DNA of 61,507 nucleotides, the filler included, from Hausera hauseri (Eukaryota), in NCBI GenBank assembly GCA_046269625.1. It is 12 parts of 12 records of this genome, joined end to end, with 100 filler letters (N's around TTAATTAATTAA, not from the genome) between each part and the next. Parts side by side here need not be neighbours in the genome. Positions count along the whole stretch, not along the records: positions 11,909 to 16,209 come from JBJURY010647997.1; positions 16,310 to 20,371 come from JBJURY010786201.1; 10 more parts are not named here. The stretch is one strand, 5' to 3'. Under the pieces are notes generated by a model. The model saw only the letters and a program-made list of their open reading frames with translations, was not told the origin of the DNA and did not search any database. The position numbers were made by a program, and so were the translations under genes. Positions 345 to 46,732 of the stretch are shown here, one piece after another. The stretch's first letter is position 1. Each line of letters begins with the position of its first letter.

Positions 345-1402
345 GTGAAATTTGAGCAATGGGGTATGGTTCAAGTTCGGCGGTTGGAGCAATTATCAAA
401 AGATTTAAATGTTGGTAACGTTGATATAAAGAAAAGATTTGGACGGCCTAAAATTTCTATAGTTTGTAAAAAGAGGATGTTGTTGAGAATAACCAAAGGA
501 CATCCATTTTATGGATATTTTGAATTGAGGACCAGATGGTTAAATGTATGTGGTGTTAATGCATCTACTTGAACTATTCGTAATCTGCTTGTGAAAAATG
601 GACTTCGTGCTCCACCGACCAGCACTTAAACCAATGCTGACCCTTAATCATTGTAGAAAACGTATTAAATTTGCCAAACATTATCTTCATTGGTCCATTG
701 AAGAATGAAAAACCGTAATAATTAGTCACGAATCGTGTTTTTCAATAAGCTCAGCTGGTGGTTGTCAGTTTGTAAGAAGGGAGTCTGGGAAGCGTTATGA
801 TCCGGTTAGTACTTTGCCAACAGTGAAGCAACTTACCTCAGTTACCGTATGGGGATGCATGAGTTAATTTGGTACCGGGCGTTTGCATGTTCTTGAACCA
901 GGTAAAAGAATGAACCCAGTATGGTATCAAAAAGTTCGTAACGACAGGATGCTTCCAGGAGCATATGAATGGTGCATGGATGGTAATTTCAAATTCCAAA
1001 ATGAAAATGCTCCATGCCATCGAGCAAATGTCATCAAGCACTGGTTCCACAAAAACAGTGTCTTCTTTTTAATGATTGGTCAACACAGTCTCCCGATAAA
1101 AACCCTACTGAAAATGCCTGGTGCCAGTTAAAAAAGATTGTAAGAAATGAGAATGTACCCAACTGATCGACCCTGACTGCTTCAATAATCAAAGGATAGT
1201 TCCGCTTAATCAATGAAAATTATTTACGCTATCTTGTTGAATCTATGCCAGAGACTTAAAATGATTATTAAAAATAAATGATGTGCTACTAAGTACTGAT
1301 TAAATTATTAATATTGCTGTTTTTTATTAATTGCATGTTTTCAAAATTTGCGAATAATAAATAATTTTACTTGGTGTCCTTAAACTTTTTCCCAAGGCTG
1401 TA
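345..1402 (+). mobile_element. Tc1-family DNA transposon remnant (frameshifted transposase plus right TIR)
   Basis: Motifs across frames: GRPKIS; KPMLTLNHCRKRIKFAKHYLHWSIEE; FQNENAPCHRA (QDNAPCH-like); WPTQSPDKNPTENAW (SPDLNPIE-like). Ends ...GGTGTCCTTAAACTTTTTCCCAAGGCTG|TA, a typical Tc1 terminus with TA target. Left TIR not seen in window. Confidence 0.85.
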
Positions 1403-1663
1403 TATTTTGATAGAAATCATATTGATCATAATCACATATTGCTAGGAGTATGTCACACAAGTTACCATTTACCTATAAACTTGTTGTTTAAATATTCATG
1501 GAACAAGAATATAAGCTTATACAAACCTTCATACATTCATTCGCAAACTTTGAAAATATTTTGATTTGTTATTTGTGTAAATATTTTTTTCATAAATCTT
1601 CGGACTTCAATAGTTTTTGCTAAACGAATAAAACTTTCTTTTTATACAAATCAAATCAATTCA

Positions 1664-4600
1664 ATGATTAATTATGATCGTTTGCCATTTGAAACCAACC
1701 AACAATTGTTTCGTCAGATTTACGATCGGCAAATTCACCGGTCACGTGGAAATTCATCTTTAATGAGTAAATTGATGATTTTTTTATATCGGCTGTCATT
1801 ATTTTTTTCAGACAATTTCGTACCCGGTTTTTTATTTGAGACATACGAATGTATGAAGTCGGATAAACATTTAATTCTGTCGGATGATTTGAAGGAAACT
1901 CCTTGTTACCAGAGTAGGTTTTGTCAAGGTAGTTTGGTATTCATACATATGTTAACTGTTATATATTAGTTAGCGGATATGAGGAATTTTGTTTGATTGC
2001 CAAAGAAACTGGGGATTTGTTTATTCTGAATACTAATAAATCGGAAAATGCCATCGGAAATAGTGAGATTGTTTTTAGGACACTGAATGTTTGTTTTTGT
2101 AGAATACAATGCACACAGAAATTGTATTTTTGACATCCATTGGATCGGAAATAATTTGGCCATATCGTCATCGGGAGACTCTACAATCAAATACCACGAC
2201 TTGAACAAACCGGCCGTTATCAAAACACTATACGGTCATCAAGGGTCCGTTAAATGTCTGGCAATGCGACCCAATCACATTAACAGTAATATTTTCTTGT
2301 CCACTTTTTGACACCATCAACTCAACAGACCAATTTGCATCCTGCTCCAGAGACGGATCTATTATGTTGTGGGATATTCGAACTGATGAAAGTCTACAAA
2401 CGGGAATCGAGTTGGCTCATCTGCCCGATGGGACGGTATCAACACCAAATCGACGGAAAAATCTTGACGTAATGTTTTCGTTTGTTGTGACCAATGAAGA
2501 TGTTTTAAGACGAATTAACAATGGCAGGTTGTAGTGGCGACCACAACGAAGACATTGACATCGGTGATTTATGCAAACGAGAATGTTTTAGTTAGCAGTG
2601 GATCGACGGATGGGTAATTATTTTGGTTTTGATTTCATTGGATGTAAGAATAGTTGACGCTTTAATTTGTTTTTTTTTAATTCACAATTTATGCACTTAT
2701 TCTATTTTCCCAAATGGAAAAAGATCCAATGAAATAAATTTAACGCAATTGGAGATTTTCCAGTATTTCAGCACTTGTTCAATTCTCCCCCGCATCTCTG
2801 ATACGTTTAGGAATTTCGAACTTTGACAAAATAGTTGCTCGTTTTTATGAGTTAATGCAGATAATATCAAAATGGATAAACGAAAATTTTGTGAAAATTG
2901 AAAATACCAAACGTTCTGGGTAAGGTGTGTGTGTGTGGCAGGGGGGGGGGTAATTGAATAAGTGCATAAATGTTGGAAATTTAAAATTTCATATTATTAA
3001 TGAGCATTATGGTTTGTTAACGAAGCCAAAAATGACTGCATTTCGGCACTTGTTCAATTCTCCCCCTTTTGAAGAAATTCTCATTCCTTTTGGATCTAGG
3101 ACCAAAAATTTGTCAAAGATGTGGCGAATTGAACAAGTGCCGAACATTCCCATGGGGAACACACAAATGCACCATGGACATGTCACGGAAAATTGAACGA
3201 ATGATGAATTGCAGAAAAAAAAACTATGGGATGTCCGTCGAATCCGTAAAGACAAAACGACACCAGTATTTCGGCACTTGTTCAATTATCCCCCGCACCC
3301 CTGATACGTTTAGGAATTTCGAACTTTGACAAAATAGTTGTTCGTTTTTATGAGTTAATGCAGATAATATCAAAATGGAGAAACGAAAACTTTGTGAAAA
3401 TTGAAAATAACAAACGTTCTGTGTAAGGTATGTGTGTGTGTGGCGGGGGGGGGTAATTGAATGTGCAAAAATATGGGAAATTTAAAAATTCATATTATTA
3501 ATGATTATTATGGTTTGTTAACGAAGCCAAAAATGACTGCATTTCGGCACTTGTTCAATTCTCCCCCTTTAAAGAAATTGTCAAAGATGGGGCGAATTGA
3601 ACAAGTGCCGAACATTCACATGGGGAACACACAAATGCACCATGCACATGTCACGGAAAATTGAACGAATGATGAATTGCAGCAAAATAAAACCATGGGA
3701 TGTCCGTCGAATCCGTAAAGACAAAACGACACCGATCGGTGTCATTCAGTATCCAGGACAGAGCAAAGTTTACAAAGGTTTCACGGATTTGATCGTCAAC
3801 AAATCGGGTACGAAACTATTTGCAAGTTGCATGGACAATTTCATATACGAATTTGCTATTTGCCGATCTGATTACCAGCATCCCAGTAAGCCGCTGCCAT
3901 TTCCCATCCAAATGAATTTTATCCGGGCCCATTTCAGCCGTCTGTTACACCGAACATGAAACTCGATCGTACTACATCAAAATGGATCTGAGTTCCGATG
4001 AAAACTATCTGGCAATCGGTAGCTCATCAAAATCGGCGTACATTTACGAAATTGGCCGAGTTCCCCAACGGCCAGTTCTGTTGAACGGACACGATGCCGA
4101 AGTGACTGTATGCCGATGGAAACCGAACGATCCGACAGTAATGCTGACAATTTCCGATGATTGTTCACTGATGGTTCATCGGATGCGTCCGGGATCGGAA
4201 TACAACGTTTTCTATCGACATCTCGTTCAGAAAGCCCAGAGAAAATCGTACTCACATACTGATGGTTGTTATTGGCATTTGTAAATGGAACTATTAGAAG
4301 AATTGTTATTTCCAGTACCAATTGCCATTTCATCCCGTTCTGTACGACAATCTGTCTCTGATCATAATCAATTGAAAAAAGACAACTCCATCAATTCCCA
4401 TTCCTCCAATCCACTTGTTGCCCTCACAACTCCACCATTCAGACCAATACACAGTCACCAACATTCCCCAATAGTCCCTTCCACGCCACCAAGACCAGTC
4501 CTGCAGACCAGACAACCACTCGCCAATCGGAATTCCCCACTTCAGTTGCAACAGAAAACCAATCGGCCAAAATCCATCAAACGATCCAAACCGATCGATG

Positions 4601-4704
4601 ACGTACCAGTTCTGCAACAAACGGAAAACGAAAAGGAAAATATCAAAAGGCGCAAGACAATTAATCAATCACTAATAACGAAATATTTTTCGTCGAATTT
4701 GTAG
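1664..4704 (+). CDS. DTL: Denticleless/Cdt2 WD40 substrate receptor of CRL4 E3 ligase; 9 exons, ~552 aa
   Basis: Manual GT-AG model: 1664-1766, 1812-1928, 1970-2062, 2103-2285, 2329-2468, 2528-2613, 3683-3885, 3938-4264, 4298-4704 (frame consistent). Cdt2-type blocks: AHRNCIFDIHW, GHQGSVKC, SRDGSIMLWDIR, LVSSGSTDG, KGFTDLIVNKSGTKLFASCMDNFIYEF, YYIKMDLSSDENYLAIGSS, LNGHDAEVTVCRW, TISDD. C-terminal KRRK and PIP box QSLITKYF; AATAAA at ~4797. Confidence 0.9.
2760..3733. repeat. Tandem duplication (~503 + ~471 bp) of a foldback/MITE-like repeat in DTL intron 6
   Basis: Units start CCAGTATTTC at 2760 and 3263. Each contains TTCGGCACTTGTTCAATT and its reverse complement AATTGAACAAGTGCCGAA. Confidence 0.9.
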
Positions 4705-6296
4705 CATTTTGTGATGTGAAAAAATTTCTATTTTGTGGTCATTTTTGTATATATTCTGATTCTCCTCAGATTAAGTTTAATGAATTGAAAGATGGCAATA
4801 AATAAATAACTATTCCAGATTTTAGCTCCGTAAATATCACAGACTCACATTGGCAGCGAATGTTGGAAAATAAGTTGTAAAATATGTCTTAAACCTGTAG
4901 ACTGACGTTGTAAAAATAATTTTTGACAATCGGTTCCTTCCTCCTTGCAACTGTTTTCTTACGACAATCACTCCAAAACCGTGACAAACCAAATTAACTG
5001 AAAATTGAAAGGAGGTAATTAGCTTAATCAACACACTGTTTAACCAAACACCCATATCCCAATGTTGCGTATTGGGTTCTGTGACATAGTGGTATTACTG
5101 AGATTTATTACTGAATATACATAGAATAATTTCAGAAATGCAAAGCTTGTTTAATTTCATTGGCTGACATAACTGAAAGAATAATGTAAACCAATAGTAA
5201 AACAAATATGTTAAATTCATATATGTAGTGAATTTTGACTCACCCGTCCAATTTCTGATTGATTGAATTTTACCACCATGTTTTGATCTTATCATGCTTA
5301 AATGTGTTCTATACAGGAAATGCGCTCCCGTTCAGTTAACATGTGACATGTACAGCTGTATATCTCTTAGAGCACATTGAAAAAGTCGATAGACAATTTT
5401 TTGATTCAAACGTTAACAGATAGACGTTATGAAACGGTTGTAAAAACACCCATCCGATGTAACAGTGGTCATAAAATAAAAGGGCTAAACTATCTGGTAT
5501 TTTTCGACTTTGAAGATGAACCTTTAAATAGCATTAATTTGAGTGAAATGTTTTCACGCTCAGACAATCAGTTTTTCATAATTAATTGCGATGCTTTATT
5601 TTCATGCTACCGCATAGCTCAGCGTTTTTGTCACAAAGTTATGTGAATTTTTACCTTCTGTAATTGCAAAAATACACCAAATAATCTGCAAATGTTTTGT
5701 GAGTCATTTTCATACTTTCTTTTTTGTCTTATTAAACCAGCTACGCAAATTGACAAGATTCTTTTTGTTAGCTGTATGATACAATTGGTTTGGAAAAGTC
5801 CTATTGATCTTTAGGCTGCTACAAACAATAGTGAAAAGATGCTGTGTCCGTCGGGTCATATGATTCGCTGGATTTCTATTCAACGATTCCACGATTATGA
5901 TTTCAATAAACTATTGGATGCACGAATTTTACGAATGACAGTTCATCAGAATTTTCAAAAACAGGCATATATTCGAATAACGTTAACATTAATAGTTGAA
6001 TTTTTCGAAAACAGTAAATCGGAATTAAATATTGGTACCAAAAATGAAGGCAAAACACCTGACAAAACAGTTAAAGGAGATGAATTTTTGAATAATCTAT
6101 CTGATGGCATAAACATTTTCAAAGTTCCAATTTTACTTCCATTATATAGCTACGGTCTCCAAAGTCAAAACTCCCAGAATATTTTCAATACGTTATTTTT
6201 GAGTATTCTTTCAACCACATGTTATTTTTTGAGTCGTTTTTCAGACAATGTTCATTTATACAAGAGTTCATTCAAGTATAATAGGAAGTCCAAGGT

Positions 6297-9200
6297 TGTG
6301 GGGCCCGAGTGTCGCCTCGATGGAAGTCTTGGTGCACTCGCGCACGTTACGGCGCACTGTACCCCAAGCCTACAGACCAATTCCTTTACTATTTTCATAT
6401 TTTTTAAAATAGACATATTCATACACACATCGGCAATCACAAAACATAAGGGCAACATATATACACCTCAATCCGCAATGACGTTCATTTTTCTGGTTTC
6501 TCTATATTTCTAAATGGACTCATTATTTGCCCCGATGATCTGCTATGCTCTTTTCAACCACATTCTTCATTTCTCTCGGTCCATCTAATTCCTAAACTTC
6601 GTGGTGGCTCTGACCCCAACTCGGAGGAGATAAAAAATTCCCAAACATAACTTTCGTTTCTCCAACTCCATCTTCTTTCTCACATTTTCAATGTGTAGAC
6701 TTTTTCTTCGATAGTCACAACTCTTGCAGAACATGGTTAGACATCCACGCTATGTGGCTAGCCTCACATAAAATCACTGATTCGTTTCAAAATGCCAACT
6801 GTCTACTTCTTCATCTGCCACCCAATATCAAATCCGGCATAACTAATCTTTCTGACATTTCTAATCATGCGGGTCCATACAAATCACTACTTGACTCCGT
6901 AACTACATCAACCGAACCTTCATTAGACTCAATAATTCAAAAATACTTCAACGAAAACGCTATTGGCCAGCAAAAACCCTCAGAATTTCTTCGCATCTCA
7001 CTTTCACAACTAAACTCACTAGGAGTAAACCAACAAAATAACGCGGATCTTCTTCGACGTTGTTTCTTATCATCTTTGCCAATCCAAATCCGTGCACTCC
7101 TTACTGTTGTAAAGGATACTACGCCACTCGACAAACTGGCGAAACTTGCGGACAAAAGTTACAAAATTTTTCATAACAAAACGCACATAAACCGATATCA
7201 ACTCTGCAAACAACGCAATCACCAACAATAGTTGTACATCTACAATCGGCAAAATCATAAAACAATGAGAACAGTATAATCTGTCAAATTCAAAATCTGC
7301 AAGCCGAAAACGTGGCCCTCCATCAAGCCATATCGGCCATCTCGAGCAAAATTGACGCTTTGGTTCTACCGCGTCGTGGTCGTTTTAGAGCGAATCGAAG
7401 CAGACATTCGTCTGCAAATTCTAGGCACGCCCAGTCACCTTCGCGTCAAATGGTGTGCCATTATCACACCAAATTCAATCGAAATGCCAAAAAATGCTGT
7501 ATAAGCTACAAGTTCTATACGCAACGTTTACAGTCAAACGATGCGGTCTGCATTTATTACAATAAGTTTAAAGACAATGCAGAACGCTGCTTATCTGGGT
7601 GCAAATTTTACACTCAGAAAACGCCAACATCTTCATCTATTCAAAAAAAACACCTAAAGCCGCCAGAAACCATGGCAAATTCTGGCAAAGGCCATTTTTT
7701 TCGTTTTAACTGCCGTACTTCTACCAATAGCATTTCCTTATTGGATGTTGCACTCACATCTTTTCCTCATCATACCAAATTCATGATCGACTCCGGTGCA
7801 GCTATTTCATTACTACCTTCATCTTTCACATCACTAAAAATGCTCCCTACGTCTACTAAACTTTTTACCGCAAATGGGCAAGCATTACGTATTTTTGGTG
7901 CCGCAGAATTGTCTTTCACCATGCCACATTTTTCTGATATCTTTTAATGGAAATTCACTGTTGCAGATATTAAAACACCAATTTTAGGGTCTGATTTTTT
8001 ATCGCACTACAACTTACTAGTTGACTGCAGGCAGCACCGTGTGGTTAAAAGTACAATCAATCACACAAAAATCACAAAATTTTGCACCACTTGTCGCACA
8101 GTTGTCTGTAGTTCCGAAATTTGTATTAAAGAAATCTTTTATCAAATTAGATAAATTAAATGTTGATAACCCCGATTGTGACGCCTCCATTCATACAGTA
8201 ACAACACATACAATTGCCAACACCGACACAACCTCTTACCTTACCTCCCCATTAATGCAACTAGATACAGTTCTTCGTGACTACATCACAATTTATTGTC
8301 CTAGAACATTGAAGAAAAACCCAAATTTCAAGCCTGTTTCTACGACGTACCATCACATCGTCACGGAACACCAAAGACCAATTAAGCAGAAGATTAGGCC
8401 ACTTTCTCCACGCAGACGCAAAGCTGTGGAATTGGAGTTCAATGAATTATAAAAAGCAGGAATTATAAGACGATCAAAGTCACCTTGGGCCTCACCTTAA
8501 CACGTAGTACCCAAGAAGGACGGTACCTTCGGGCGTTGTGGCGATTATCGCCAGTTGAACACCATTACGGTAATGGACGCATATCCACTACCGCTCATCA
8601 GCGATATCCTACACAGACTCAATGGCAACATCATATTTTTATCCATCGATCTTCATAAAGCCTACCATCAGATTCCTGTCTCACCTGCTGACATACTGAA
8701 AACAGCTGTGACAACACTTTTCGGTCTTTTTGAGTATGTTTTCATGCCGTTTGGTCTATGTAGTGCCTCTCAAACATTTCAAAGGCACATAGACACAATT
8801 CTCGCTGGTCTAAACTTTGCATTTCCTTACATAGATGACATTCTCATAGCTTCGTCATCTCCTAAACAACATTCTGAGCACTCACGCATAGTTATTCAAA
8901 GCCTCCACAAAAATAATTTAGAAGTAAATTTCGCCAAGTGCTCTTCTAACACAAGATCCATTTCCTTGGTCATGTCATCACCAAATTTGGCCACTCTCCC
9001 CAGCAAGACCACATAATTCAGCTTAAGAACACCCAATTGCCACGAACAACAACTGAAATGCCCTTTTTTCTTGGCACACTCCACTTTGTTCACAAATATG
9101 TGCCACAGTGCTCTGATTTAACCGCACCTTTTGCCTTTTTATCGTCTGAAAAGAAGAAACAACTAACTCATTGGACTCCCGAACTTGTCAACCAGTTTTA

Positions 9201-11415
9201 CCAGTTACGCGAAGGTTTAAAAAATGTTGAAATTCTAGCGCACCCCAAGCCTGACGCATAGCTAATATTAACCTCAGATGCCTCTACCACAGCAGTCGGC
9301 GCAATACTGCATCAAATTTCTAATGGTGTCAACAATCCTCTGGAATTTTATTCTCGGAAACTTACATCACCAGAAAGTCGTTATTTAACTTTCGACAGAG
9401 AGCTCTTTGCTATAGTATTAGCTTTAAAACACTTCTTTCGTTTGTTAATTGCCAGGTCCTTTACGATCCAAAGTGACCACAAACCTCTTAATCACATCAT
9501 GGATATGAAAACTTCTTCATCTCGACAAGAACGTCACATATCGTACTCCTCGACATTCAATTTTAAAATGGTACATATTTCAGGCACTGACAAATTTGGT
9601 TACCGATTTTTTGTCCAGATCAGTTAATATCATTGGAGTCACTTCCATTTTCTCACAAGCAGTGCTTCAGAAAAATGTACCAACACAGGAAATTCTTAAG
9701 TCTTTTAAATGGCACCATATTGTCGATGGAATAGCCTATGACACTTCTAAACCCTGTAATCACAAGCCAATTTTGTCTTCATCTTTGCAGAAAACTTCAT
9801 TTCGTAACGTACATTCTATTCATCATCCGGGTGCCAAAGCAACTTTTCGTCTTCTGCAACGTAGTGTTATATGGCCGTGGATGAGATTAGATGTACAGGC
9901 GTGGTTTAAAAAATTCAACACTCACAAGCATCTGAAGCCACCATTATATCACTTCCCCTGTACGTCGCGTTTTGAATCCGTTTATATAGACCTTGTCGGC
10001 CCTCTTCGTCCAGACAACGGTCATCAATTCATACTCACCATGATGGACCGTTTTTTTCGATTGCCAGAAGCCGTTCCATTACGTTCCACCAACACAGACA
10101 CCATAGCTGAGGTCTTCATCAAAACGTGGATCAGCAGATTTGGCTTCCCTTGTTTCATAATCACGGACCAAGGTGCACAATTCGAGTGAAATCTCTTTAA
10201 ATCCTTAGTCAATCGCTTGGGGATTAAACATATACACACCTCTCCATATCATTCCCAAGCGGACAATTTAGTAGAAAGATTCCACCGCACAATGAAAACC
10301 TCACTTAAAATCCTAACTAAATCACACAGCAACTGGACAGCTCTTCTACCTATTGTCTTGCTTGGCTGGCGAAACACACCTTCCACCACCACGGGTTGTG
10401 CACCAGCTGAAGTATTGTTTGGAGTACCGATTCGAGCACTTCTTGAGTTAACTGATCTGGGCGATACATCAACAGACGAACTGATTCGAAATGCCCAAGA
10501 TCACTTCGTTACACTACACAAAGACTCATTTTGTAAAATAGTAAATTGTAACAAATCAAATATACCGAATGATTTGTATACTGCCAAGTTTGTATGGCTT
10601 CGAAATCCTTCACCTGGTAATTTTCAACCAAAGTACGTTGGACCTTTCAAACTCCTTTCTTTATAGTCAAATACAGCTACAATTCTTAAAAGCGGTAAAG
10701 AACAAACGGTACACATCACCAATCTAAAACCTGCCTTTTTCGTGGATGACTCTCCTCATGATACACAAACCAACCCTAATTCAACCTGGCACTTTTCTCA
10801 ATTCTTTTGTTTCTACTCCGTTCCTTGCTAAATCAACAAATCATCAACCACCACCTGGTCCAATTCCCACTTTTCTATCTAATCTTTCTACCCTACTTTC
10901 AATTCTTTACCTGTTACTTTTCACTTCTCATCTTCTACAGCTAACGTCCCATCCAATACTTCACATTCAACACTTTCTGCTTCTCTCGTCTCAATTCCTA
11001 CTCATCTTTTCTCATCTTCCAACTCTACTTCACATTCTCCAATTTCTACTCCGCACTCTTCATTTTCCATTTCTCATTATTATCTTCGTCCTCCTTTTCT
11101 TCTTCAATTAATCGTTCCTCACAAATCTCACTTCCCTCAAAAAAACAATATCAAACAATCAACCCAAAAATACGACAAAGCTCTTACCACTACGTACATC
11201 TCCGCAAATGAACACACCACATGAAAACAGAACACGCAGAGTTATTTTCAGTAAGCACAGTAGGGAGCAATATATCGACAAAGTACAACGCCTCTCACAC
11301 ACAAAAATCGAGTAGAACACAAATCCATTTCCTTTTTGCGATTTTCTTTTCAAATTCTCACTCTCTATTAGTGCCATTTTTTGCTACGGAGGAGGGGGGG
11401 GGGTAGTGTGGTGCC
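6297..11415 (+). mobile_element. Ty3/Gypsy retrotransposon, CsRn1/Kabuki-like, near full-length internal region, degenerate (copy A)
   Basis: Gag (QKPSEFLR, FLSSLPIQIRALL, CHCC-type knuckles); protease FMIDSGAAIS; RT SPWASP, DAYPLP, PYIDDILIAS; RNase H DAS, FDREL, SDHKPL; integrase HHPG, IDLVGPL, ITDQGAQFE, VERFHRTMK, YVGPF; G-rich PPT 11388-11403. Many stops and frameshifts. Confidence 0.92.
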
Positions 11416-11908: not shown

Positions 11909-13253
11909 ATTGAGCTCATTCAGGATCCTGAAATTTATCAGTTCTTTCAATTTGGTATTCGCGGTGGTATGACTTTTGTAAATAAGCATAAGGTTACCAC
12001 TGATGAAAACACTAGTCTCTTGTATATAGATGTAAATAATTTGTACGACTGGGCTTTATCTCAACCTTTGCTATTTGCAAATTTCATTTTATGATGAAGA
12101 TAATTTAAATAGTCTCATTGAGTAATTGCCCTTTATTGACACTGTTAAAGAAAAATGAGGTTTAGTAATTGAGGTTGATTTAAGCATTCAGGCTGACAAA
12201 CATGATAAATTAGACCAACTGACTTTAGCTCTAATCAATCAGTGCCCTCCTGGTTCCGAAGTAAAAAAATTGTTGCTGACACATGAGCGTAAGTCTAACT
12301 ATGTTATTCACTATTGGTTATTACAGCTGTACATCGAGTTAGGCACTATAGTTGAAAAGGTACATAGGGCTGTTGAGTTTGACCAGGGTTATGTTTTTAA
12401 GGATTACATCGATATAAATACTGCTAAGAGGGCTGCAGCAAATATATCTTTTGAAAAAGACTTTTTCAAGCTTAAGAACAACAGCTTATACGCCAAAACT
12501 GTTGAGAATCTTTTAAAGAGGTCCAACTTGAGACTATGTAATAATGCTAAGAGGCTTATTACATACGCCAAAAAGCCACAGTTTAAAGAGAGCATTATTA
12601 CAGATAATGACCTGGTTGTCGTTCTTTTCGATAGAGACATAGTCACCTTAGATAGTCCCTCATATATCAGTCAGGCCGTATTTGATCTGTCCAAGTTGCA
12701 TATGTATGACCTGAATTATATAGAGTTGGAGACATATAGACAACAGTTTAGTCGTGAACCTAATATCGTTGACGGTGACATAGACAGCTTTTTCGTCGAA
12801 TGCCGTGGTGTTGATTTTAGATCACAACTTTTACCGGCAATAATAGTAAACGAGTAGTTGGACACTTCAAACTATGATATATATGATTCGTTGTACTCGA
12901 TTTGTTTCGCAGCCAAAATTGGGAAATTTAAAGACAAGGGCAAGGGCAGCGTTCAGTATTAAGAGGCAATTTTCCTACGGCCCAAATCATATGTCCTGAA
13001 AACCCAAACAAAACCAGTCCTCAAATGTAAAGAGATCAATCTCAAGCATACAGACTTGCAGTTCAGTAACTACCTACAAGCTTATGAAACCCGTTGCAGC
13101 ACCATGGTGGATCAGGAGCGAATTGGCAGTAAAAACTACCAGCTGATGACATTCAGTTTAAAAAGGGAAGCATTGGACCCGTTCGACGACAAGCGCCAGT
13201 GGATTGAGAAAAAACGGAGTGTTGCATACGGACATTATTGTATAAATATGTGA
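11909..13253 (+). pseudogene. Polinton/Maverick protein-primed DNA polymerase B, C-terminal half, degenerate
   Basis: GIRGGMTFV; LYIDVNNLY (motif A); KDFFKLKNNSLYAKTVEN (motif B); DGDIDSFF (YGDTDS-like); LRPKSY; ALDPFDDKR; AYGHY stop; AATAAA ~13284. Confidence 0.9.
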
Positions 13254-16198: not shown

Positions 16199-17098
16199 CT
16201 TCTAAGTGTNNNNNNNNNNNNNNNNNNNNNNNNNNNNNNNNNNNNNNNNNNNNTTAATTAATTAANNNNNNNNNNNNNNNNNNNNNNNNNNNNNNNNNNN
16301 NNNNNNNNNAAATACACGTCAAATATAGAAAGAATATCAAACCCTATTTCCCAATTAGAATTGTTCAACCTACAGACAACCATAGTTTTACAATCACTGT
16401 TCGAAAACAGGGAGAAAATAAGACAAAATTACCAGCAAGAACACCGAAATTCCTAGAAGAACGAAAAAAAGAATTAAAGCCAGAAACAATAGTGAAGAAA
16501 CAAAAATTGGAAGAAAAACCTCAGCCAAAGAAAACGCCATCTATTTATAACTATTTATTCAAAAAAAGAAAAACAAAAGAATGAAAACCAACAAATGGAA
16601 CAAAGCACCTCTCAAAAGGCTAAGTGCGTAAAGAAAATTAGTAAATCTATGATAACCGAAATCAATGTTCTATTAGGAAAAAAGTCCGAAGAAAATGTCC
16701 ACCACAAAACAACTCAAGACTACCAAAGAATGCTGATACCTACCGAATATTGTGGCAAAAAATGATTAAAGAAGCCATGTTTTACATCAAAATTGCTCCA
16801 GTCAGAAAATTTTCGAAAATAAATATATCTGGGAAAACACTAAGTTAGGAAATTATTTCACCTCAGTCTTCCGCTCAAAAAGGACAAGGAAAATAATAAT
16901 TCCAGTAGACAAGCAAATTCCGGTACTACTAAAGAAGCAATATCAAAAATATCGAATAGAAGGAAAAATTCCAGATTTAGATCGAGATCTTATGGCGGAC
17001 TGGACATTAATACAAGTAACTGTGACCCATGGAAAAGTTCCATTAACCCCAAGTAGAAGGTAATCCACGGATACCTGTATCAAGACGGAGATGGTCTT

Positions 17099-17458
17099 GT
17101 GTTCGAACCGATTGAATTAACGATCCAGGTAGACTTGGATAGAGACGATTGGGACAAAGAAGATAATGAATGCCCTGTGTGCTATGCCAATCTGAGGCAA
17201 GGCTATGTGGTATTGGATAATAAAGTTTGCCGCCACAAATACTGTCGCGATTGTCTGGAGAAATGGACGCTCGACAATGGAAAAACGACGTGCCCAGTGT
17301 GTCGTGCAGAAGCCACTGAATTGAAATACTACTCAGACGGAAGTTACATCCAAGTTGTTCGAATCAAACCCTATCATAGTTACAATCTGGAGACGAGCCC
17401 ATTAACCAGTCAAGGCCAATTAGATTCCCAAACGGACCTACCAGAAAGAATCGATTGA
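17099..17458 (+). CDS. C3HC4 RING-finger domain (putative E3 ligase), probably the C-terminal part of a longer frameshifted ORF
   Basis: CPVC-x15-CRHKYCRDC-x3-W-x8-CPVCR: complete C3HC4 ligand set plus the conserved Trp and terminal CPxCR. Confidence 0.88.
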   Translation: MFEPIELTIQVDLDRDDWDKEDNECPVCYANLRQGYVVLDNKVCRHKYCRDCLEKWTLDNGKTTCPVCRAEATELKYYSDGSYIQVVRIKPYHSYNLETSPLTSQGQLDSQTDLPERID

Positions 17459-17533
17459 GACAACCTAGAACATTGGGCGCTACCTCTTCTGACGTAATAG
17501 GCTCCTTCGAGGATGCTGCTCAGGGAGGAGAGA

Positions 17534-18244
17534 TGTAATGATCAGACGATGATGCACTAGACCGGATTACGGCCGAAAATAATATAAATATTAGTGTATA
17601 AACTCGGGTTATTTTAAAATTGTCGATTGTTAAAATATTTTTAAAATTGAATCATAATGATTGTACTGGAATTTGCGAATGATAAAATTATAAGAATATC
17701 CATGATTGAATTGCAAATGTAAGAAATGTAAATATAATTAGAAGTATTACAAATAAATCGAACAAGTTTCGGACCTGCTACTATATAAGCAGATCGTGAA
17801 CCATCAGAAAGACAGATAACTAGCTGACGACCTTAGAGCATTCGGAACAAACAAATCAAATTCATTGTATTATTGACTATTTCTTGGATTGACTTGAACT
17901 GAATTGTGATTGATCGAGAACTTGTGGTTGTATTCAGAAATAAAGGTGAATTATATTTGGTTGTATTTTAAATTTCCTTATATAGTTTCGCATCGTCTCT
18001 TAAAGACGATTTGACTTCCCTAAGGTTAAAATAAACTTAAAATCAATAGTTAGGACGAGAACTATCTAAATTAAGACAGTCATTCATTGCAGACAGTACA
18101 AGCATCACACTAAATAGAACGAAAATTATAAGGTACAAACAGACTTTTCGAGAACGAATAGTCCGAACCTGCTCAAGAAGGAATTAATCTATTAGAAAAA
18201 CATTGTTATAGTGGGAGACGGTAAGGGCCACCCCAACTGTAACA
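17534..18244 (+). repeat. LTR (~711 bp) of RING-encoding element
   Basis: Directly after PPT; TGT...ACA termini; TATATAA ~17782; AATAAA ~17938; shares motifs with 42372-43110. Confidence 0.8.
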
Positions 18245-19834
18245 ATAGTATCTCAATTCCAATGACGTCAAAATTCACAGATGAAGAAAAAGTCTGAAAG
18301 GAATTACTTAGATGTTTTTGGGTTTACCATAGTAAGTGTTAAAACATTAGTATTATTGGAAACGCTCCGTATACCATTGGAAATTCTGCATGGCGTAATA
18401 AACATGCTAGCCTCACGAAACACTAGAGATTTGAAGAAGGTAACGAAAACCGACTTTGTCTTATCAAATTACCATATGTATATGGAATAAAAAGATTCAT
18501 AAAAAGTGCTGAAGCCATAACGGAGGTAATAATTCCTATTTATCAAACCTTAAAGAACCAATGTTATAATGAAACATACATAATGGAATGGAAACTGCAT
18601 GCCAACAACATGATACATAATGGTTACTTTCAATAAAGTAAATGTCCAATATCATGAAAATTATGTATCAGAAAAATTACGGCTGAGAAAAATCCAATTC
18701 AACAACAAAAAGTATATACTACAAAGTACCTGAAAAGATATGTGGAAACTATGTTAACTATAAAACATATAAGGTTGTCTATCATTTTTTATGAAAACAC
18801 CAATAGAACAGTAAATGTTATCTACATACAGCAAAGAACATCATCATTATATGACAATTTGATAATATCTAACCATGAAATCGGAAATATCATCATATTA
18901 ATATATAGACATCAAAAATGCAATACTCTTCTTGCCATCATCTTTGTAGTAGATTTTGAATTTCTTCAAAAAACTAATTATGAAATCATTCAAACAGATC
19001 AACCAATCCAAATACAAATGAAAAACAAATTATATCCTAACCAAGGAATAGAAAAATTCTAGAAATGAACGAGGCAGGACGAAATATAAAAATGATATTG
19101 TACAAAGGTCTCCATGGATAAGTACTTGAGAGTTTATATGGACCTAACAAAATCCATGAATCAAAACAAATGCACCCCTGTCAAACGACTCTAGGAATAG
19201 ACAGAAAATAAGTAAACAAACACCCATTCAAGTAGCCCCAGCCAACATTCAACGAAGACAAGAAAATAGAAAATAAAATTTTTGACAATGTTATTTATGC
19301 TAAAACGTTTGCTTATACTATCTACTCTGTCTTTATTTTGTTTCAAAAACACTGATCATCATGTGATTATTTTTCATGTATTTCAATTCTTATTTATGCT
19401 TCACTGACAAGTATAACACAGTTTTGTTGAACAAAAAAAATTTTTTATGGAGGAAGATGTTGGGATGCGAAATTCAAGATTTAAATATGACTTGAAAAAT
19501 CAGTTCAATCATTCATTTTCTTTATATTTTCATTTTGATTATAGTTTTGTTAGTACAGCCAACGCCGAACCGACGTTGAATAATTAATGAACGCTGAATA
19601 ATTAATGATGCAGACACCGATAATCTAAATAATTTAGTATAGCTGACGCCGATAATACAAAAATTAATGAAACATTGTTTCTTGGTCTAGACGACTTTAA
19701 TTTACATTACCTATTTATTAGTGTCATTATTAGTAGATTTTGTCATAAAGTATTGCTGAAGATTAAATCTATTTCATTTGAATTTTAATTCCTTTCCTAG
19801 AGTAATTTTTAAATAAATAATAAGATTTACGTAT

Positions 19835-20065
19835 AGCAATAAGGAAAGTAATATAATACGGACCCACTTTTCCATACACCGGACAGTAAAACCCGGTCGT
19901 TAAAATATTAAAGGGGGAGTCATCGGTTTGCGTCCTGACGAGACTCACACAGTAAGGTCAATTAAACTTAATAAGAAGTAGAGATTATAGCAGACCCTAC
20001 AGGCTGCTGTTGACCAAAAGAAANNNNNNNNNNGACCAATTATTTTACAACCTATAAACTTATCA
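19835..20065 (+). repeat. Solo LTR of the Met-PBS family (contains 10-N gap)
   Basis: Shares CCGGACAGTAAAA.CCGG, CCTGAC.AGACTC and GACCAAT...AAACT.ATCA with 26884-27173; similar to the reverse complement of 24903-25198. Confidence 0.7.
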
Positions 20066-22851: not shown

Positions 22852-23226
22852 TAAGTAGTATATTCAAAATTTTGAAGAGTGTATTCAAATTTTAAAATCA
22901 GTCAATTGGGATTTAAGTAAAGCTGTTGAAAATTTAGGCCAACTTAGTGAATTTTCTGTTTCTGCAGTGAAATCAAGTATTCTATTGAGTCAATCATCAA
23001 ATCGATCAAGATATTTAGTTTTAAATGTCAATATTAAAGGCCAAAATGTGGAAATTACTGTTTCAGAAAACCAAACCGTTGGTGATGTTGCCAAAGCAGC
23101 AGCATTATATATCAACGATCCAGAATGTTTACTCAAAATCAATGGTCTAAAACTCCATACGATGACAATACAGTTTTAAAAACCATGAAGTTACCAAGTC
23201 ATAATAACGTTGTTGCTATTCCTGTT
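22852..23226 (+). pseudogene. FAF1: FAS-associated factor 1 N-terminal fragment (UBA-like plus first ubiquitin-like domain), frameshifted and truncated
   Basis: IQNFEECIQILKSVNWDLSKAV resembles the FAF1 UBA (IENIDEAITLLEQNNWDLVAA); RYLVLNVNIKGQNVEITVSENQTVGDV...then, after a shift, DDNTVLKTMKLPSHN resembles FAF1 UBL1 (EDSTVLKSLHLPKNN). Confidence 0.72.
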
Positions 23227-33919: not shown

Positions 33920-36900
33920 CCCAATCTGTATTTATCACACAAAATTCCACTCCCTAGCCAGATCGTGCGTTCTGGGATGCAAACATTACAAAAACAACTC
34001 CAGTTTTTCTTCACCTTCTTCTCCTCCTCCTCCTGCCTACCAGTCATCTTCTTTTCCTCCATAATTTTCAAAAAACTAAAAAGGCCGCCAGATGTTGCGG
34101 CACATTCTGGCATAAACAACCCTGCTCAGTCTTCTGGCCGTTTTAACACCGCCTCCGCAGTTTTTCTGTTAAAAGGTACACTGTTTTCTAACAATGCTCC
34201 ACATATCGATTTTCTCATCGACTCAGGAGCTGCCTTTACACTCCTCCCTTTGTCCTGCGTCCCTACATCAACGGCAGTTTCTTCTCCTCAGCTATTCACT
34301 GCCAGCGGTCAACCGTTGCGAATCGCAGATACCACGTAACTGGTTTTAACATTTTCAAACTTACCAGGCAAATTTGTCTGGAAATTCCACGTGGCCAACA
34401 TTAAATCGCCAATAATCGGCTCAAAATTTTTGGCTGCGCACGACCTGCTAGATGACTGCAAGTACGGTTGTTTGCTACGTAGATACTCCGTCGTAAAAGT
34501 TAACAACTGTCTAACACGCAGCGCAACAGACCAATCGACTGCAAATTGCTCATCTTTTGATAACGACACATCTAGTAGTTTATCTATTTCCTTAATTACA
34601 CCTCAAACACCAAAGTCGATTTTAAAACAGTCGGTTAAACCGAATGTTGACGATGGCAACGTCGTTCGTTCTTCGCCAATCACAGTCACCGCTTCCTCTG
34701 ATAATACGCCTCAATCATTTTTATCACTAGATTCCAATCTCAAATCCTACATCAATTCTTCTTGTCCTCGCGTACTAAAAAAAACCCTAGCTTTAAGCCC
34801 CTGTCAACAACTTATCACCGCATTGTCACTCAACACTAAAGGCCTATCAGACAAAAGGTGAGACCATTATCGCCCCGTAGACAAAAAGCCGTGGAATTAG
34901 AATTTAACAATTTGAAAAATCTGGTATCATTCGGAGGTCCAAATCACCATGGGCTTTACCATTACATGTAGTGGCAAAAAAGGACGGTACTTTTCGACCA
35001 TGTGGCGATTACCATCTAGTAACCAATCTAACACTCATGGATGCTTACCCATTACCGCTCATAAAAGACATCCTGCGCAGTCTTAACAACACCATTACCT
35101 ATTCCACAAAAGATTTGCACAAAGCCTACCATCAAATCCCCGTTGCACTCGATGACATTCCAAAAACTGCTGCCATCACTTTATTTGACCTTTACGAATA
35201 CATGTTTATGCCATTCGGTTTACGTAACGCAGCCCAAAAATTTCCAACGCCACATCGACACCGTTTTCTTAGGCCTTGATTTTGCTCATCCTTACATTAA
35301 TGACATATTAGTTGCCTCCATGTCCGTAAAACAACACCATAAACACCTCCGAATTATTTTTCACAAACTGCATCATAGTAACTTACAAGTCAATTTCTCC
35401 AAGTGCTATATTTTTTAGAAACGTGTCAATTTCATAGGCCACATTATCACTCCTCACGGTCACTCTCCACAACCTGATTGACTACAGCAATTAAAAAACG
35501 TAACACTACCAACGACCATTACAGATATGAGAAGTTTTCTTGGCACACTACATTTTGTCCATAAATACATACCGCATTGCTCTGAGCTTACGGCACTTTT
35601 CGCACACCTCTCATCTGGAAAAAAAAGACAATTAATCCAATGGACTCCCGATTTAGTCACCAAATTCGATTACCTACGCGAAGGCCTAAAAACCGTCGAA
35701 ATACTGGCCTATCCAAAACCCGACGCAGAGCTAATACTTACCACTGATGCCTCTTCCACAGCTACTGGTGGAATACTACACCAAATTTCCAACGGCATCG
35801 ACGAACCTTTGGAATTTTATTTTTGAAAACTCACACAACCAGAAAGCCGATATTCTACCTTTGATCGTGAGCTACTAGACATAGTTCTGGCAGTAAAACA
35901 TTTCAAGCATCTCTTCCTCTCTCGCCCATTTATCATCCAAACGGATCACAAGCCTCTGTTACACACTAAAACAGCCATCACCAAGGCAGGAACGACAGAT
36001 ATCGTACCTATCTACATTTAGTTTTGTCATAAAGTATATTTCAGGCACGGAGAATTTGGTCGCGGATTTCCTATCACAGTCGATCGGCTCAATTACGGTT
36101 GAACCAATATTTTCTACCGAAATTCTAAAGCTCAATCAGCCATCTGCCGATATTCTTAGCTTTCTTAAATCCTTCGAAATCATTGATGGCACTGCATACG
36201 ACACATCTAACCCCGGTAATAAAAAAATCATTCTCGCTCCTTCTTTGTAGAAACCAGCTTTTCTTCACAAGCATTCATTTCATCACCCAGGCTTGAAAGC
36301 CACGTTTCGCTTGCTCCAACGTCATGTAGTTTGGCCATCAATGCGCACAGATGTACCGGGTTGGGTTAAGGAATGCGCCGCCTGTCAAAAATACAAAGCC
36401 AACAAATAGCTTAAACCTCTGCTTTACCATTTCCCATGTACATTACGTTTTCATACCGTCCATTTTGATCTCGTCGGACCTTTACCTTCCGATAACGGGT
36501 ATCAAGGTATTCTCACTATGATGAATCGTGCTTCTCGTTGACCTAAAGCCGTTTCCCTCCTCTCAACAAACACCGATTCAGTAGCAGACGCCTTCATCAA
36601 AATCTGGATCAGTCGTTTTGGATCCCCACGGCATATCATAACGGACAAAGGTCCGCAGTTTGAATCGAAATTTTTTAAATCGCTTGCTAAACGCTTGGGG
36701 ATATTACATTTCCATACAACACCGTACCACCCACAAGCAAATGGCCTCCTTGAAAGATTCAATCGAACTATGAAAATTTCTTTAAAAATCCTAGCAGACA
36801 ATAATCGCAATTGGACGTCCATCCTGCCATTTGTTCTACTGGGTTGGCGCAACACCCCTTCCACCAACATTGGTTGTGCTCCAGCCGAAGCACTTTTTGG

Positions 36901-37760
36901 GACTCCAATACGAGCTCTGTTCGAACTTTTCGACCTTCACGACAATCCGACAAACGAAAGCATTCGCGCAGCACAGTCGCACTTTGTTGAGGTCAACTCA
37001 GACTCATTCTTCCGCTTATTTAACAATAACAATTCGTACATTCCGAAGGATTTATACTAAGCCAAGTTTTTATGGCAGATGGATCAATCACCTTCAGGCT
37101 TTCGACCTCAGTATTCTGGTCCATATAAACTACTTCTCCTCTCATCTAATACAGCTACCATCTTACGCCAAGAAAAACCTTACAATGTCCACATTTCAAA
37201 CCTTAAGCCCGCTTTCTTCGTTGATGACAATCCGGATGCCGATTCTACCTCCAACTCCAACTCAACTCTCGCTCCTTCCATTCCTTCCTCAAACTTTCTC
37301 CACGTTTTCGCTCCGTTACAATAACAACTCTTCTCTCACACTAAATCATCTTCAACTTCCGCACCGCTTACTGAATCTACATCGCTTACTCCTTTTTCTC
37401 CGCCCACCTCTTTTCCCTCTCTTTCACCATCCCCACCACCTTCAGTTTCTTCGCCTCTCTTATTTGATTTATTCTCTTCACCATCTTCAACATTTTCACC
37501 TCAAGCAACACAGCACAATGAATCAGAAAACCTTACAAAACGTCCACCAAAAAATATCGTCCAACAACCAAGCAAAAACCAACCAAATAGGACACGCAGA
37601 GTGACATTCAGTACCTATAGGAGGGAAAAATCCGTAGACGGAACACAACGCCTCATACACACCAAAACCCAACAGGCACTAAACAATTTTAGCGTTTCGC
37701 CTCCTTCTGTTTCACCCTACAGTTTCTTTTCTGCCACGGGGGGGTGTGATGTAGTGCCAC
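33920..37760 (+). mobile_element. CsRn1-like Gypsy, gag end through PPT, degenerate (copy D)
   Basis: CHCC knuckle CIYHTKFHSLARSCVLGC; FLIDSGAAFT; RPCGDY; DAYPLP; PYINDILVAS; TTDASS; HFHTTPYHPQANGLLERF; YSGPY; LKPAFFVDD; PPT 37738-37744. Confidence 0.92.
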
Positions 37761-40940: not shown

Positions 40941-41079
40941 GAAAAGGCTGCCAGAAAGATTCAGGATAAAATAAAAGGTGCTATTTCATACACTTGAAGT
41001 GTCCAATATTCATGAATAAAGGTAGTAGGGGAAAAACGGGAAGTCTGCCGCACCCGCCCGGGGGTGTGCGAATCGATAA

Positions 41080-41470
41080 ATCAGTTTCCACATGTGTCAA
41101 TCGATAGTATACATGGCGCACTATTGATCGGTAGTGTGCTAGGCGACGGTGCAGTTAGGTATAGTTGCTATGCACATTTTTGCACATTTCACAAATCAAT
41201 AGCTGCACAGTGCAGTATTGATCGAATCGATCGGGACAAAGTGCTAATTGATAGTGCACATTAGTGCACATCGACTGGTCCACAGTACAGGTACACAGCA
41301 CATGTGCAAGTGTGCAAAAATCAATAATATCGGTTTTCCGATATTTCCAATATTGATGATTAGCATATGGCACCGGGTGCAATCGATTGGAAATATTATG
41401 CACTATGGAAAAGTGCAATTAGAATTTAAATCGATCGAGTCGATTCCTAATAATATCGATCCAAAGTGCA
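41080..41470. repeat. Degenerate low-complexity repeat rich in ATCGAT / GTGCA(C) words
   Basis: Many dispersed ATCGAT, GTGCA and TGCAC words in ~400 bp. Confidence 0.5.
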
Positions 41471-41537
41471 ACTGAGACAGACTTCCCAAAGGTTTTTTAG
41501 GTCCCATGGATTCAAAATTCGACAAATGTTTAAGCGG

Positions 41538-41809
41538 GAACAGATAGGAAGTGCCACATTGTAATCCGGGTCTTCCATCTCAGATTTCCGAAATTCTGTG
41601 AGCAACTCGAATAAATATCGATTTTCAGCGAACAGTATCAATTATTTTGACACCAATAAATTTTTTGAGAAATCTGAGAGCGACAGTCGATTCCACATAT
41701 CTTAATGCATCTATATAGCAGACAAAAATTTGGGTGTGCAAAGTATTTACAAGTGTCTCGAAATGAACAGATAGGAAGTGCCACATTGTAATCCAGTTCT
41801 TCCATCTCA
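41538..41809. repeat. Direct repeat pair (~45 bp; 41538-41582 and 41764-41809)
   Basis: GAACAGATAGGAAGTGCCACATTGTAATCC.G.TCTTCCATCTCA twice. Confidence 0.85.
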
Positions 41810-41814
41810 AATTG

Positions 41815-43375
41815 ATGGGAATTCCAGATTTAGATGCTCAACAAGTAATCGAATGGACCCTAATAGCCGTTAACCGTGACTCCAGAAAAAGCTCAATAGA
41901 CCCAAAAAGAAACAGTTACATGGATGTTTATATAAGAATTCAAAAGGATTGCTTTTTCAAGAAATATCATGGGTCACAGATTGCGATATAGATAACAATA
42001 CCGAATTTCTTTGTCCCGTTTGCGAAGCCAACTTATGGCAAGGCTATTCAATTTTAGCAAATAAGAATTGTCGACATCGTCATTGCCGAGACTGTTTAGA
42101 ACAGTGGACGTTAATCAATGGAAAAACCACCCTGTCCAGTATGCCGAGCCGAGGCCGCACAATTGAAATATTTCTCTAGAGGAGAAAATAACCATATTGT
42201 GGAAATAAGGCCTAACCCCAGTTACCAACTCGAAATAAATCCCAGAATTAGCCTACCAAGCTCTTCGTTAGATAGTTCGCAAAGTGATTTACGCGGACGG
42301 ATAAACGCCAGACCGTGGCGTCACTTCTGACGCAATAGGCACATTCGAGAATGCTGCTGAGGGAGGAGAAATGTTGTAAATAAGCAAAACATTCAAATTG
42401 GCTATCTTGTATATAGATATTGTAGCGAAATTATATCAATTGAGTAGTCATTATTCCATTAGATTTATAATTAATCTGGTTATTTAATATCTGGGCTAAC
42501 AGCTAAATTATTGATATTGCAAATCTAATTGAAATATAATCAGACTAACAGCTGGAAATTGTTGAGTAATATTAGAAATCGAGAAATAATTGTATTATAT
42601 GAGTAGAAAACGCCTACGTTATGTGATAAGCAAGTATAAATACTGAATGGAAAAATGGATAAGGTCAGAAGGAGAGATCGACTTTAGCGTTGATTCGAGA
42701 AAACAACGATTCAAACTTGAAAAGGATTACATACAAGTAACCAGTTCAGATTGATTAGAAAAGTGACTATCGTGACTAAATCGTTGCTGTCGATCGTTGC
42801 TGTAATTACGTTTGGTAAAATTTATTCTATTGATTATCTTTTTCTTTTAAAATTCGTATTGTTTTCCATCGGCTCTTAAAGCTGATTAGAGATACATTAA
42901 GGGTAAAATCATACGGTAACTTATATAAGTACTAGAGTTTATTAAACCGAAACACAGGACACGACATTATACAACCGCACGCACGTAACATCGACATATT
43001 GTCACATTCGTTTAAGGAGAACTTTAAACCGAATCTGCTTATAGTAAACAAAATTGAAGTGTAAAATACGTTATATATAGAGGGAAGGGCCACCCTAATA
43101 ATATATAACATTTTGCGACACTAGCAGGACAGTATGTGCCTAGCTAGATACTATTTAGAGTCAAGTAACGACATACCGGCGATCAGCGCCATCTACACCA
43201 AGTAATTGTGAGAAATTTAAAATTTGGGATATACGTTATTAGACTTAAATTTAAAGGGATAATTTAGCATGAATACTGACAACCAAGTAAACGGTAAAGA
43301 TAAATCACCTATACGTCAAACACGTAGAGTTATATATAGAGAAATAAATAAACGAGCAAACGCCGAAACTAGAGC
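41815..43375 (+). mobile_element. RING-encoding LTR retrotransposon (copy 2): RING ORF, PPT, LTR, PBS-like site, possible gag start
   Basis: IPDLD...WTLI matches copy 1; PPT GAGGGAGGAGAAA ending 42371; LTR 42372-43110 TGT...ACA; TTGCGACACTAGCAGGAC 43113-43130; open ATG frame from 43269. Confidence 0.82.
41949..42330 (+). pseudogene. C3HC4 RING-finger domain, one frameshift
   Basis: CPVCEANLWQGYSILANKNCRHRHCRDCLEQWTLINGKTT / CPVCRAEAAQLKYFS; collinear with 17099-17458. Confidence 0.88.
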
Positions 43376-44899: not shown

Positions 44900-45530
44900 A
44901 AACAAGCCCAGTCTCAACAAGATGAAACTCAAAAAACACCAGGGCCAGATCATATCCCCAACGAAATGCTACTCAAACATGATGAAAAAGAATTGCTGAC
45001 AATCCTAAAACAGGTAATCAGCAAAACAGATAATCAAAAATAATTCTAGAGAGGATTGGAAGTGGGTACATACTATAAACGGAAGGAAGCTTTTCAGACA
45101 CTTTACAGCCCCCAGCAATGAAGATGCTATCAACAGGATTGAACGAAAGTACCAAATATAGATCTCCAGGTTGAGAACTGGCCACTGTACACTAAATCCT
45201 CACAGAAACAGATTGGACCCGCAGACTACAGCAAAATGCAGACACTGTACATACTAAAATAAGACAGTGAAACACCACCTGCTGTCTTGCCCCGAACTCC
45301 AGGAGCTGAGACTGACTATACTACCTGACAACACAAACATAGACAGTGTTCTATATGGCAGTCCACAGCAGTTTATTAAAACTGCACAGTACCACATATT
45401 GGCATCAAAGTCAACAAGAGCTGACGCTCAATGAATGTGGATCAAAGGTAGGACAAGAACAAAATGAGAGAGTGGGGCACCACCTACTGTCTTTCTCAAG
45501 ACTCCAGGAGCTAAGACGGATTCTTCTTCT
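44900..45530 (+). mobile_element. Non-LTR (I-group-like) remnants
   Basis: KTPGPDHIPNEMLLKH (RT start); LRTGHCTLN and TVKHHLLSCPELQELR (C-terminal knuckle), partly duplicated. Confidence 0.6.
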
Positions 45531-45559
45531 TCTTCGTACGCCTTCAGATGTCAATTTGA

Positions 45560-46330: not shown

Positions 46331-46732
46331 TAAGATGATAGAAATGTGAGTGTCTATGATAAAGGGCGGAAAATGATTTCTTCAGACTGTTAAAATTTGA
46401 AGATCACATAATCAACGGTTGTTTGGGACTTAATGACGTAAAGAAAATGACTGTGTTCCAGTCAAAGAGAAGATGGGAAATGCGTGAGATGGACACAGCA
46501 TTTTGAAGAAATACATAACATAGGTCTAGCACACACAATAATAAACATACTAGAAGCGGAGAATTATTAAATATAAACACAGACGCTCCTCAAAAATAAA
46601 TGGTCATTTAATCCATCAAACGACTGCAGAAACTTAAATGCAGAACTTTTCAAAGCAAACCCAAACCTAGCAATAGAATTATTAGTACCTTTGTTTACAC
46701 AGGTATGGGAAACAAACAAAAGCTAAACTGAA

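Follow-up and report, generated by a model that had tools for sequence, protein, structure and literature searches.

An LTR retrotransposon group with a long-maintained RING-finger gene that reaches its polypurine tract: a candidate element-encoded ubiquitin ligase

What would an LTR retrotransposon do with a RING finger? The question is raised by a locus of Hausera hauseri (assembly GCA_046269625.1) at which a RING-coding frame leads into a polypurine tract (PPT) and an LTR. To our knowledge, it is largely open by what protein-level means LTR retrotransposons evade host silencing, and we know of recognisable domains in only a minority of the extra ORFs of such elements. The window, i.e. the whole stretch of 61,507 nucleotides analysed here, consists of twelve contigs of 4–12 kb each from an AT-rich eukaryote, with N linkers between them, and it harbors a first copy of the element at 16310–18244 and a second one at 41815–43110.

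Copy 1 begins with the C-terminal half of a broken accessory ORF (16310–17535, plus strand), the contig start falling within the ORF. Its reading frame changes four times, near 16580, 16805, 17020 and 17440, and is interrupted by two internal stops at 16763 and 17054. A C3HC4 RING finger is encoded at 17171–17302 (plus strand) with all eight zinc ligands intact and in RING spacing; it lies in the stop-to-stop frame 17057–17455 and is matched by Pfam zf-RING_2 (E 2.7e-10) and zf-C3HC4 (1.5e-7). According to the original prediction, a complete RING ORF stops some 65 bp short of the PPT. The RING and its eight ligands are confirmed, but the frame has no ATG and starts right after the stop at 17054. 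Its end was misplaced as well, the stop being a frameshift product, and the homologous frame continues across the PPT as far as the start of the LTR in copy 1, copy 2 and an unbroken relative, P0001. The PPT itself (17522–17533, plus strand) overlaps the last codons of the ORF and is followed, as predicted, by the 3′ LTR (17534–18244, plus strand; 711 bp, TG..CA), which contains a TATA-like site at 17782 and AATAAA at 17939 and 18030.

P0001 (870 aa) is a singleton from one 16,242-bp contig and was obtained from a search of 1.84 billion proteins that gave 982 matches at E <= 0.001. Among the matches listed it is the sole family-level relative (E 1e-35, 59% over query residues 1–116), the other 149 aligning around the RING core only. 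Copy 1 is colinear with its residues 435–870, and its C-terminus is the same PPT-encoded tail as in the window copies. Conservation of the protein beyond the RING core, as originally proposed, is real by protein comparison. The layout of P0001 comprises an exonuclease-like domain, a basic linker in which five K/R residues cluster at 547, and the RING, which is preceded by 700 residues; a Pfam scan of P0001 yielded no reverse transcriptase, RNase H, integrase, chromodomain or env match. The segment 16312–16425 (plus strand), formerly taken for an integrase-like end, aligns to P0001 residues 435–472 with a score of 55, which was reached by none of 2000 shuffles. It therefore corresponds to the middle of an ORF that lacks an integrase, just behind the exonuclease-like domain. 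Because the supposed integrase end is no integrase, the evidence offered for a C-terminal fusion to Pol falls with it, and the 700 residues free of Pol domains favor the other option named at the outset, an ORF in the env position.

If the ORF were a long C-terminal extension of Pol, translated in frame or by read-through, with the RING sitting where chromoviruses have their chromodomain and anchoring integration to chromatin, this would agree with the passage of the frame across the PPT to the LTR start, as is often found for pol frames. Furthermore, Ring1B and Bre1, whose RINGs bind nucleosomes, are among the best PDB folds for the modelled RING (Z 6.6–7.5, tied with many others). Such an extension is nevertheless improbable given the lack of any integrase or other Pol match in front of the P0001 RING and the position of the supposed integrase end in mid-ORF, and no longer or fused relative was found in a weak search with the RING frame or in a search with P0001 as query that covered 478–1523 aa. 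We therefore consider the ORF likely to be separate from Pol. A chromodomain-type tail as the best reading was also rejected, since the scans of window frames and of P0001 showed neither a chromodomain nor an integrase. The same applies to an env glycoprotein with a C-terminal membrane anchor: there is no env match, the RING occupies the end of the protein, and its only hydrophobic window consists of residues 1–24. In this stretch the gene call may have run over a T-rich splice acceptor, which would be expected to encode residues such as 13–19 of P0001 in frame. P0001 is the product of a single gene call, and its start could lie behind a frameshift or stop of a damaged pol.

The exonuclease-like domain was located at about residues 246–345 of P0001 by weak, concordant DnaQ/DEDDh matches in the PDB (DnaQ 8h18, E 1.4e-4; PolC 2p1j, 4.6e-4), together with phrog_192 (1.1e-4), Pfam RNase_T (0.012) and four NCBIfam DnaQ/PolC models (0.004–0.011). 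All of these matches, from four libraries and the PDB, lie below the curated cut-offs and cover the first two motifs only. Three catalytic positions could be aligned, two of motif I and one of motif II, and none of them is acidic in P0001; motif III of the DEDD domain did not align. Judged by these residues the nuclease-like domain is likely inactive. A single-sequence fold of full-length P0001 reached a pLDDT of 31, too low to be used. Since the window does not cover the N-terminal half, this half is given to the family by homology only.

Further relatives were sought in several collections. With P0001 as query, itself alone was found among 7295 candidates of 478–1523 aa. Word-indexed protein searches with the RING frame gave none of one candidate at similar length and none of 112 longer ones, and these searches are weak because P0001 itself was missed. 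Scans for related loci gave 0 of 5 and 0 of 116 pattern matches in IMG/VR, 3 of 502 in JGI metagenomes (all of them RING-core matches) and 1 of 69 in GTDB, a 17-residue match; none of the three collections yielded a member of the family. In the ESM Atlas generic RING clusters were found for the RING frame and nothing for 16312–16581.

Copy 2, which lies on a different contig, retains the final part of the ORF (41815–42376, plus strand; P0001 residues 683–870) with three frame changes near 41905, 42132 and 42325. A PPT (42359–42371, plus strand) lies directly before its LTR (42372–43110, plus strand; 739 bp, TG..CA). The architecture claimed for 41815–43110 accordingly recurs with respect to PPT, LTR and RING homology, but the RING of this copy is split by the frameshift near 42132. 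The breaks sit at different places in the two copies, and both copies are dead and decaying. At about 41815 copy 2 is cut by another repeat, and P0001 residues 1–690 have no match upstream of it on its contig. The repeat block that abuts and truncates the copy (41038–41813) contains a MITE-like element with 15-nt inverted ends (41038–41487) and a 49-nt unit recurring at 227-nt spacing. The two LTRs share 428 of 681 aligned bases, and their alignment score of -5 compares with -92 +/- 10 for 100 shuffles; they are homologous and strongly diverged, in line with the original prediction. No further copies of this LTR were found in the window.

Two nucleotides behind the LTR of copy 2 follows a putative tRNA primer-binding site (PBS; 43113–43130, plus strand), an 18-mer with one mismatch. 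It has an Arg/Ser-type start, the mismatch lies within its first three bases, and the PBS shape test applied here is passed by 1.4% of the window positions. The start agrees with published Arg/Ser-type PBSs at 6 of 7 bases, and the exact 12-mer is absent from the table of PMC13524379. According to the supplementary rows available from that paper, Ty3/gypsy PBSs with such a start use tRNA-Arg or tRNA-Ser (PMC13524379), and a similar PBS start 2 bp behind the LTR is given for Dictyostelium DGLT-A in the accessible part of PMC5006619. Situated between a PPT and a candidate PBS, the LTR of copy 2 is probably a single LTR serving two tandem units. The region behind it (43111–43375) is the probable 5′ leader of the next unit and contains no long ORF through to the contig end.

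Neither copy is linked to gag, pol, a 5′ end or a target-site duplication, the 5′ part being missing in both. One explanation would be a non-autonomous LTR-PBS-ORF-PPT-LTR element, partly in tandem, that is mobilised by others and has the ORF as its only gene. The PPT and putative PBS on either side of the copy 2 LTR are as in tandem arrays, in which non-autonomous LTR elements occur. Autonomous elements, however, form tandems too, the missing pol is accounted for by the contig end in copy 1 and the interrupting repeat in copy 2, and the contig of P0001 with its 16,242 bp has room for gag-pol, which renders this explanation quite improbable.

One public sequencing run (15.5 million contigs) that contains the stretch, and that is possibly the source sample of the window itself, was compared with copy 1. 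The region 16310–20020 is matched by 1725 run contigs, 1271 of them less than 95% alike. Summed contig depth, which is not a copy number, amounts to 1436–4678 over the RING and PPT, 5453 at the LTR end and 3–7 in the flank. It drops from 5453 to 4.6 across 18244–18294, and 35 run contigs depart from copy 1 at 18244 into continuations that are unlike one another (agreement 0.44). Position 18244 is therefore the true 3′ end of a member of a large and diverse family. The first half of the LTR (17550–17921) varies much more across the family than the ORF or the LTR end, with a summed depth of 26–119 compared to 967–5453 for these parts. With TG..CA ends, a sharp 3′ boundary and a PPT directly before the 3′ LTR, the sequence represents the 3′ end of an old and abundant LTR retrotransposon group.

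The RING element is not CpG-depleted (observed/expected 0.84–1.46) and transitions are balanced among its run variants; it therefore likely belongs to the main organism, which is probably an invertebrate, and not to the source of two CpG-poor contigs in the window. These contigs (29367–33553 and 43476–48439; observed/expected 0.62 and 0.43 compared to 0.79–1.12 elsewhere) suggest that the assembly includes DNA from a second organism, a vertebrate-like one. Other mobile elements in the window include three related degenerate gypsy gag-pol elements (6614–10750, 33900–37060 and 23760–24720, the last on the minus strand), which are about 66% alike, contain an RVT_1 match (E 2e-24), have no link to the RING family and look CsRN1-like to us. 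Another gypsy element at 50880–52726 has a broken gag with zinc knuckles, a protease and the start of a reverse transcriptase, with no LTR or PBS in front. Broken frames like those of protein-primed DNA polymerase B at 59598–61234 and 12159–13250 are presumably Polinton-like, and a zinc finger plus Myb-like segment at 32787–33314 (Pfam Myb, E 0.0017) resembles, in our view, the N-terminus of an R2-type LINE. Host-like genes are represented by a WD40 protein at about 1900–4700, presumably similar to DTL/Cdt2, a UBA/ubiquitin-like protein at 22859–23176, presumably similar to FAF1, and a DNase II at 49098–49290 (Pfam E 7e-16).

Whether the RING has been maintained was assessed from the codons of the two window copies. 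Over 111 codon pairs of the RING region, identities at the three codon positions are 70/85/35, pS is 0.90 (saturated) and pN 0.30, i.e. a ratio well below 1, and 40 of 62 identical residues are encoded by different codons. For all 145 codon pairs pN/pS is 0.35 (bootstrap 0.27–0.46, Fisher p 5e-20), a value from protein-guided local alignments, which favor low pN, and with 4 of the 145 pairs stemming from a mis-framed segment. The last 16 codons of the ORF are constrained as DNA (pS 0.19). In addition, three lineages that are only 52–59% identical in the RING region retain all ligands. Long maintenance of the RING gene under purifying selection, as proposed originally, is supported by the pN/pS between copies and by the many diverged copies.

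A host RING gene fragment that was captured once and spread passively, functionless for the element, would be consistent with the broken state of both window copies. It would also fit the comparison of copy 1 with the run contigs, in which the differences with the best support look neutral, with 4 synonymous and 10 not and codon positions of 5/5/4 (14 of 25 listed coding sites scored, among the best 40 of 566 sites). The same pattern, however, is expected for one copy decaying after its insertion. Contrary to passive spread, three lineages keep all ligands while synonymous sites are saturated between the window copies, and the 149 other protein matches listed contain no donor-like host protein beyond the RING core. 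Passive capture is disfavoured by the pN/pS well below 1 and is very improbable.

The RING of copy 1 was modelled with AF2 from an alignment of 65 sequences and adopts a predicted RING fold (pLDDT 81), flanked on both sides by predicted β-hairpins (about 17069–17110 and 17318–17362). Against the PDB, Ring1B was matched with Z 7.5 and an rmsd of 2.9 for 62 aligned residues, tied with many others. Common to copy 1, copy 2 and P0001 are a hydrophobic residue after the first Cys and a helix Trp, as well as a Pro and an Arg around the final pair of Cys, positions to which we ascribe a role in E2 binding. E3-type features and fold are thus supported for copy 1 by its residues and by the model, and ligase activity of the ORF product appears probable. 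Among predicted structures, baculovirus IE2 and alphaherpesvirus ICP0 come first (E 1–4e-4), a match that is a lead only, the folding alignment having been filled with generic RINGs. Matches to IE2/PE38 and ICP0 as a whole range from E 1.3e-4 to 8e-3 at 14–26% identity. These viral proteins likewise represent a C3HC4 RING in a mobile element, but the likeness is a functional analogy only and sequence kinship with the ORF was seen in the generic RING only. In the viral proteins, which are unrelated, the RING occupies an N-terminal or central place.

With regard to its organization, the element works like an ORF3-bearing LTR retrotransposon. According to the accessible text of PMC5408684, the Juno and Vesta LTR elements of bdelloid rotifers carry an ORF3 with a DEDDy exonuclease, and ORF3s are typically spliced. 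As far as that text goes, both cases concern a non-envelope extra ORF, which lies behind pol in Juno/Vesta, with a DnaQ-superfamily exonuclease domain, a putative one in the present family. In contrast to the rotifer domain, which is of the DEDDy type with invariant residues intact, that of P0001 has DEDDh/DnaQ-type matches and lacks the alignable catalytic acids, and unlike the rotifer ORF3, P0001 has a C-terminal RING after a long basic linker. The word RING does not occur in the main text of PMC5408684, PMC13524379, PMC3248453, PMC7264820 or PMC2774666, and its mentions in 10.1101/2021.04.23.441226 and PMC12465478 are unrelated to such ORFs. DnaQ-like domains are among the known accessory domains of LTR elements in the available part of PMC6338049. 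The accessible portion of PMC6431247 reports for the planarian giant gypsy elements Burro/GYPSM1 the ubiquitination- and apoptosis-linked domains MATH, BIR and 'AIR1 with RING Zn-finger', and describes no C3HC4 RING ORF ending at a PPT. Burro/GYPSM1 thus resembles the present element as an LTR element with a ubiquitination-linked domain; unlike this env-position ORF, its motifs sit, by the same portion, in an ORF1 polyprotein of about 4,900 aa or in upstream ORFs. The AIR1 label presumably denotes a zinc-knuckle family. As in chromoviruses, i.e. Ty3/gypsy elements with a chromodomain at the integrase C-terminus, a small reader-sized domain is located close to the PPT, but here 870 codons free of chromodomain and integrase precede the PPT. 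Extra ORFs with exonucleases or with motifs related to ubiquitin are consequently known already, whereas no description of a RING ORF at the PPT of an LTR element was found in the literature searched, a scope outside which lie Repbase, Dfam, GyDB and most subscription papers.

A comparable combination of domains is found on the host side. In the available part of PMC10123124, a study of the PML and Plex9 exonucleases, PML has a RING (RBCC) plus a DEDDh exonuclease domain and restricts LINE-1, and human PML does so via proteasomal degradation of ORF1p. Compared by description in that part of the paper, PML differs from the ORF in that it is a restriction factor of the host and has its two domains in the opposite order. 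A further DnaQ-derived domain occurs in Maelstrom, in transposon silencing (PMC2628886, as far as accessible).

Taken together, a selected RING gene and a relative with a nuclease-like domain and no integrase indicate that the element likely encodes its own ubiquitin ligase. Our preferred reading, to which we assign a probability of roughly 45%, is a separate accessory gene of about 870 codons in the env position whose RING E3 ligase would be directed against a host restriction or silencing factor. According to this reading gag-pol would sit upstream of the ORF, which would be read from its own, probably spliced mRNA. The element would also carry a P0001-like N-terminal half, by homology, with the DnaQ/DEDDh-like domain that has lost its catalytic acids serving as a nucleic-acid- or substrate-binding module. 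The basic cluster would drive nuclear import, the RING would recruit a host E2, and the product would ubiquitinate the host protein for degradation. As to the target alone, the analogy with the viral ligases leaves host defence evenly balanced against other substrates.

Alternatively, the E3 ligase or adaptor might serve the life cycle of the element itself instead of attacking host defence, either by ubiquitinating Gag or particle components or through binding of genomic RNA or cDNA ends by the nuclease-like domain. Anatomy and selection fit this equally well, and there are precedents: DEDDy ORF3s of rotifers are proposed to aid 3′-end processing in the accessible portion of PMC6431247, and the accessory protein CERV of C. 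elegans Cer1 exports the RNA of its own element according to the available text of PMC10309623. On the other hand, most elements manage with gag-pol alone, and the closest predicted structures are host-antagonising viral ligases, a weak argument that is not independent of the folding alignment. We regard a role confined to the element as rather unlikely.

Returning to host defence as the target, a more specific version seems doubtful but would reach furthest, namely an LTR clade with an ICP0/IE2-like counter-defence enzyme of its own, formed by fusion of a dead DEDDh nuclease to a RING ligase. The dead nuclease would mimic or bind the host anti-retroelement machinery and the RING would destroy it; if true, the protein would be the mirror image of the host restriction factor PML with its RING plus DEDDh. 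The domain that closes this extra ORF can be assayed by established means and its substrate can be traced, and since P0001 is unbroken in nature, the dead copies need not be used for such a test. Should the substrate belong to the silencing or restriction machinery, the element would parallel herpesvirus ICP0 and baculovirus IE2 directly on the retrotransposon side; if it is the particle of the element itself, it would represent a new use of ubiquitin in retroelement replication.
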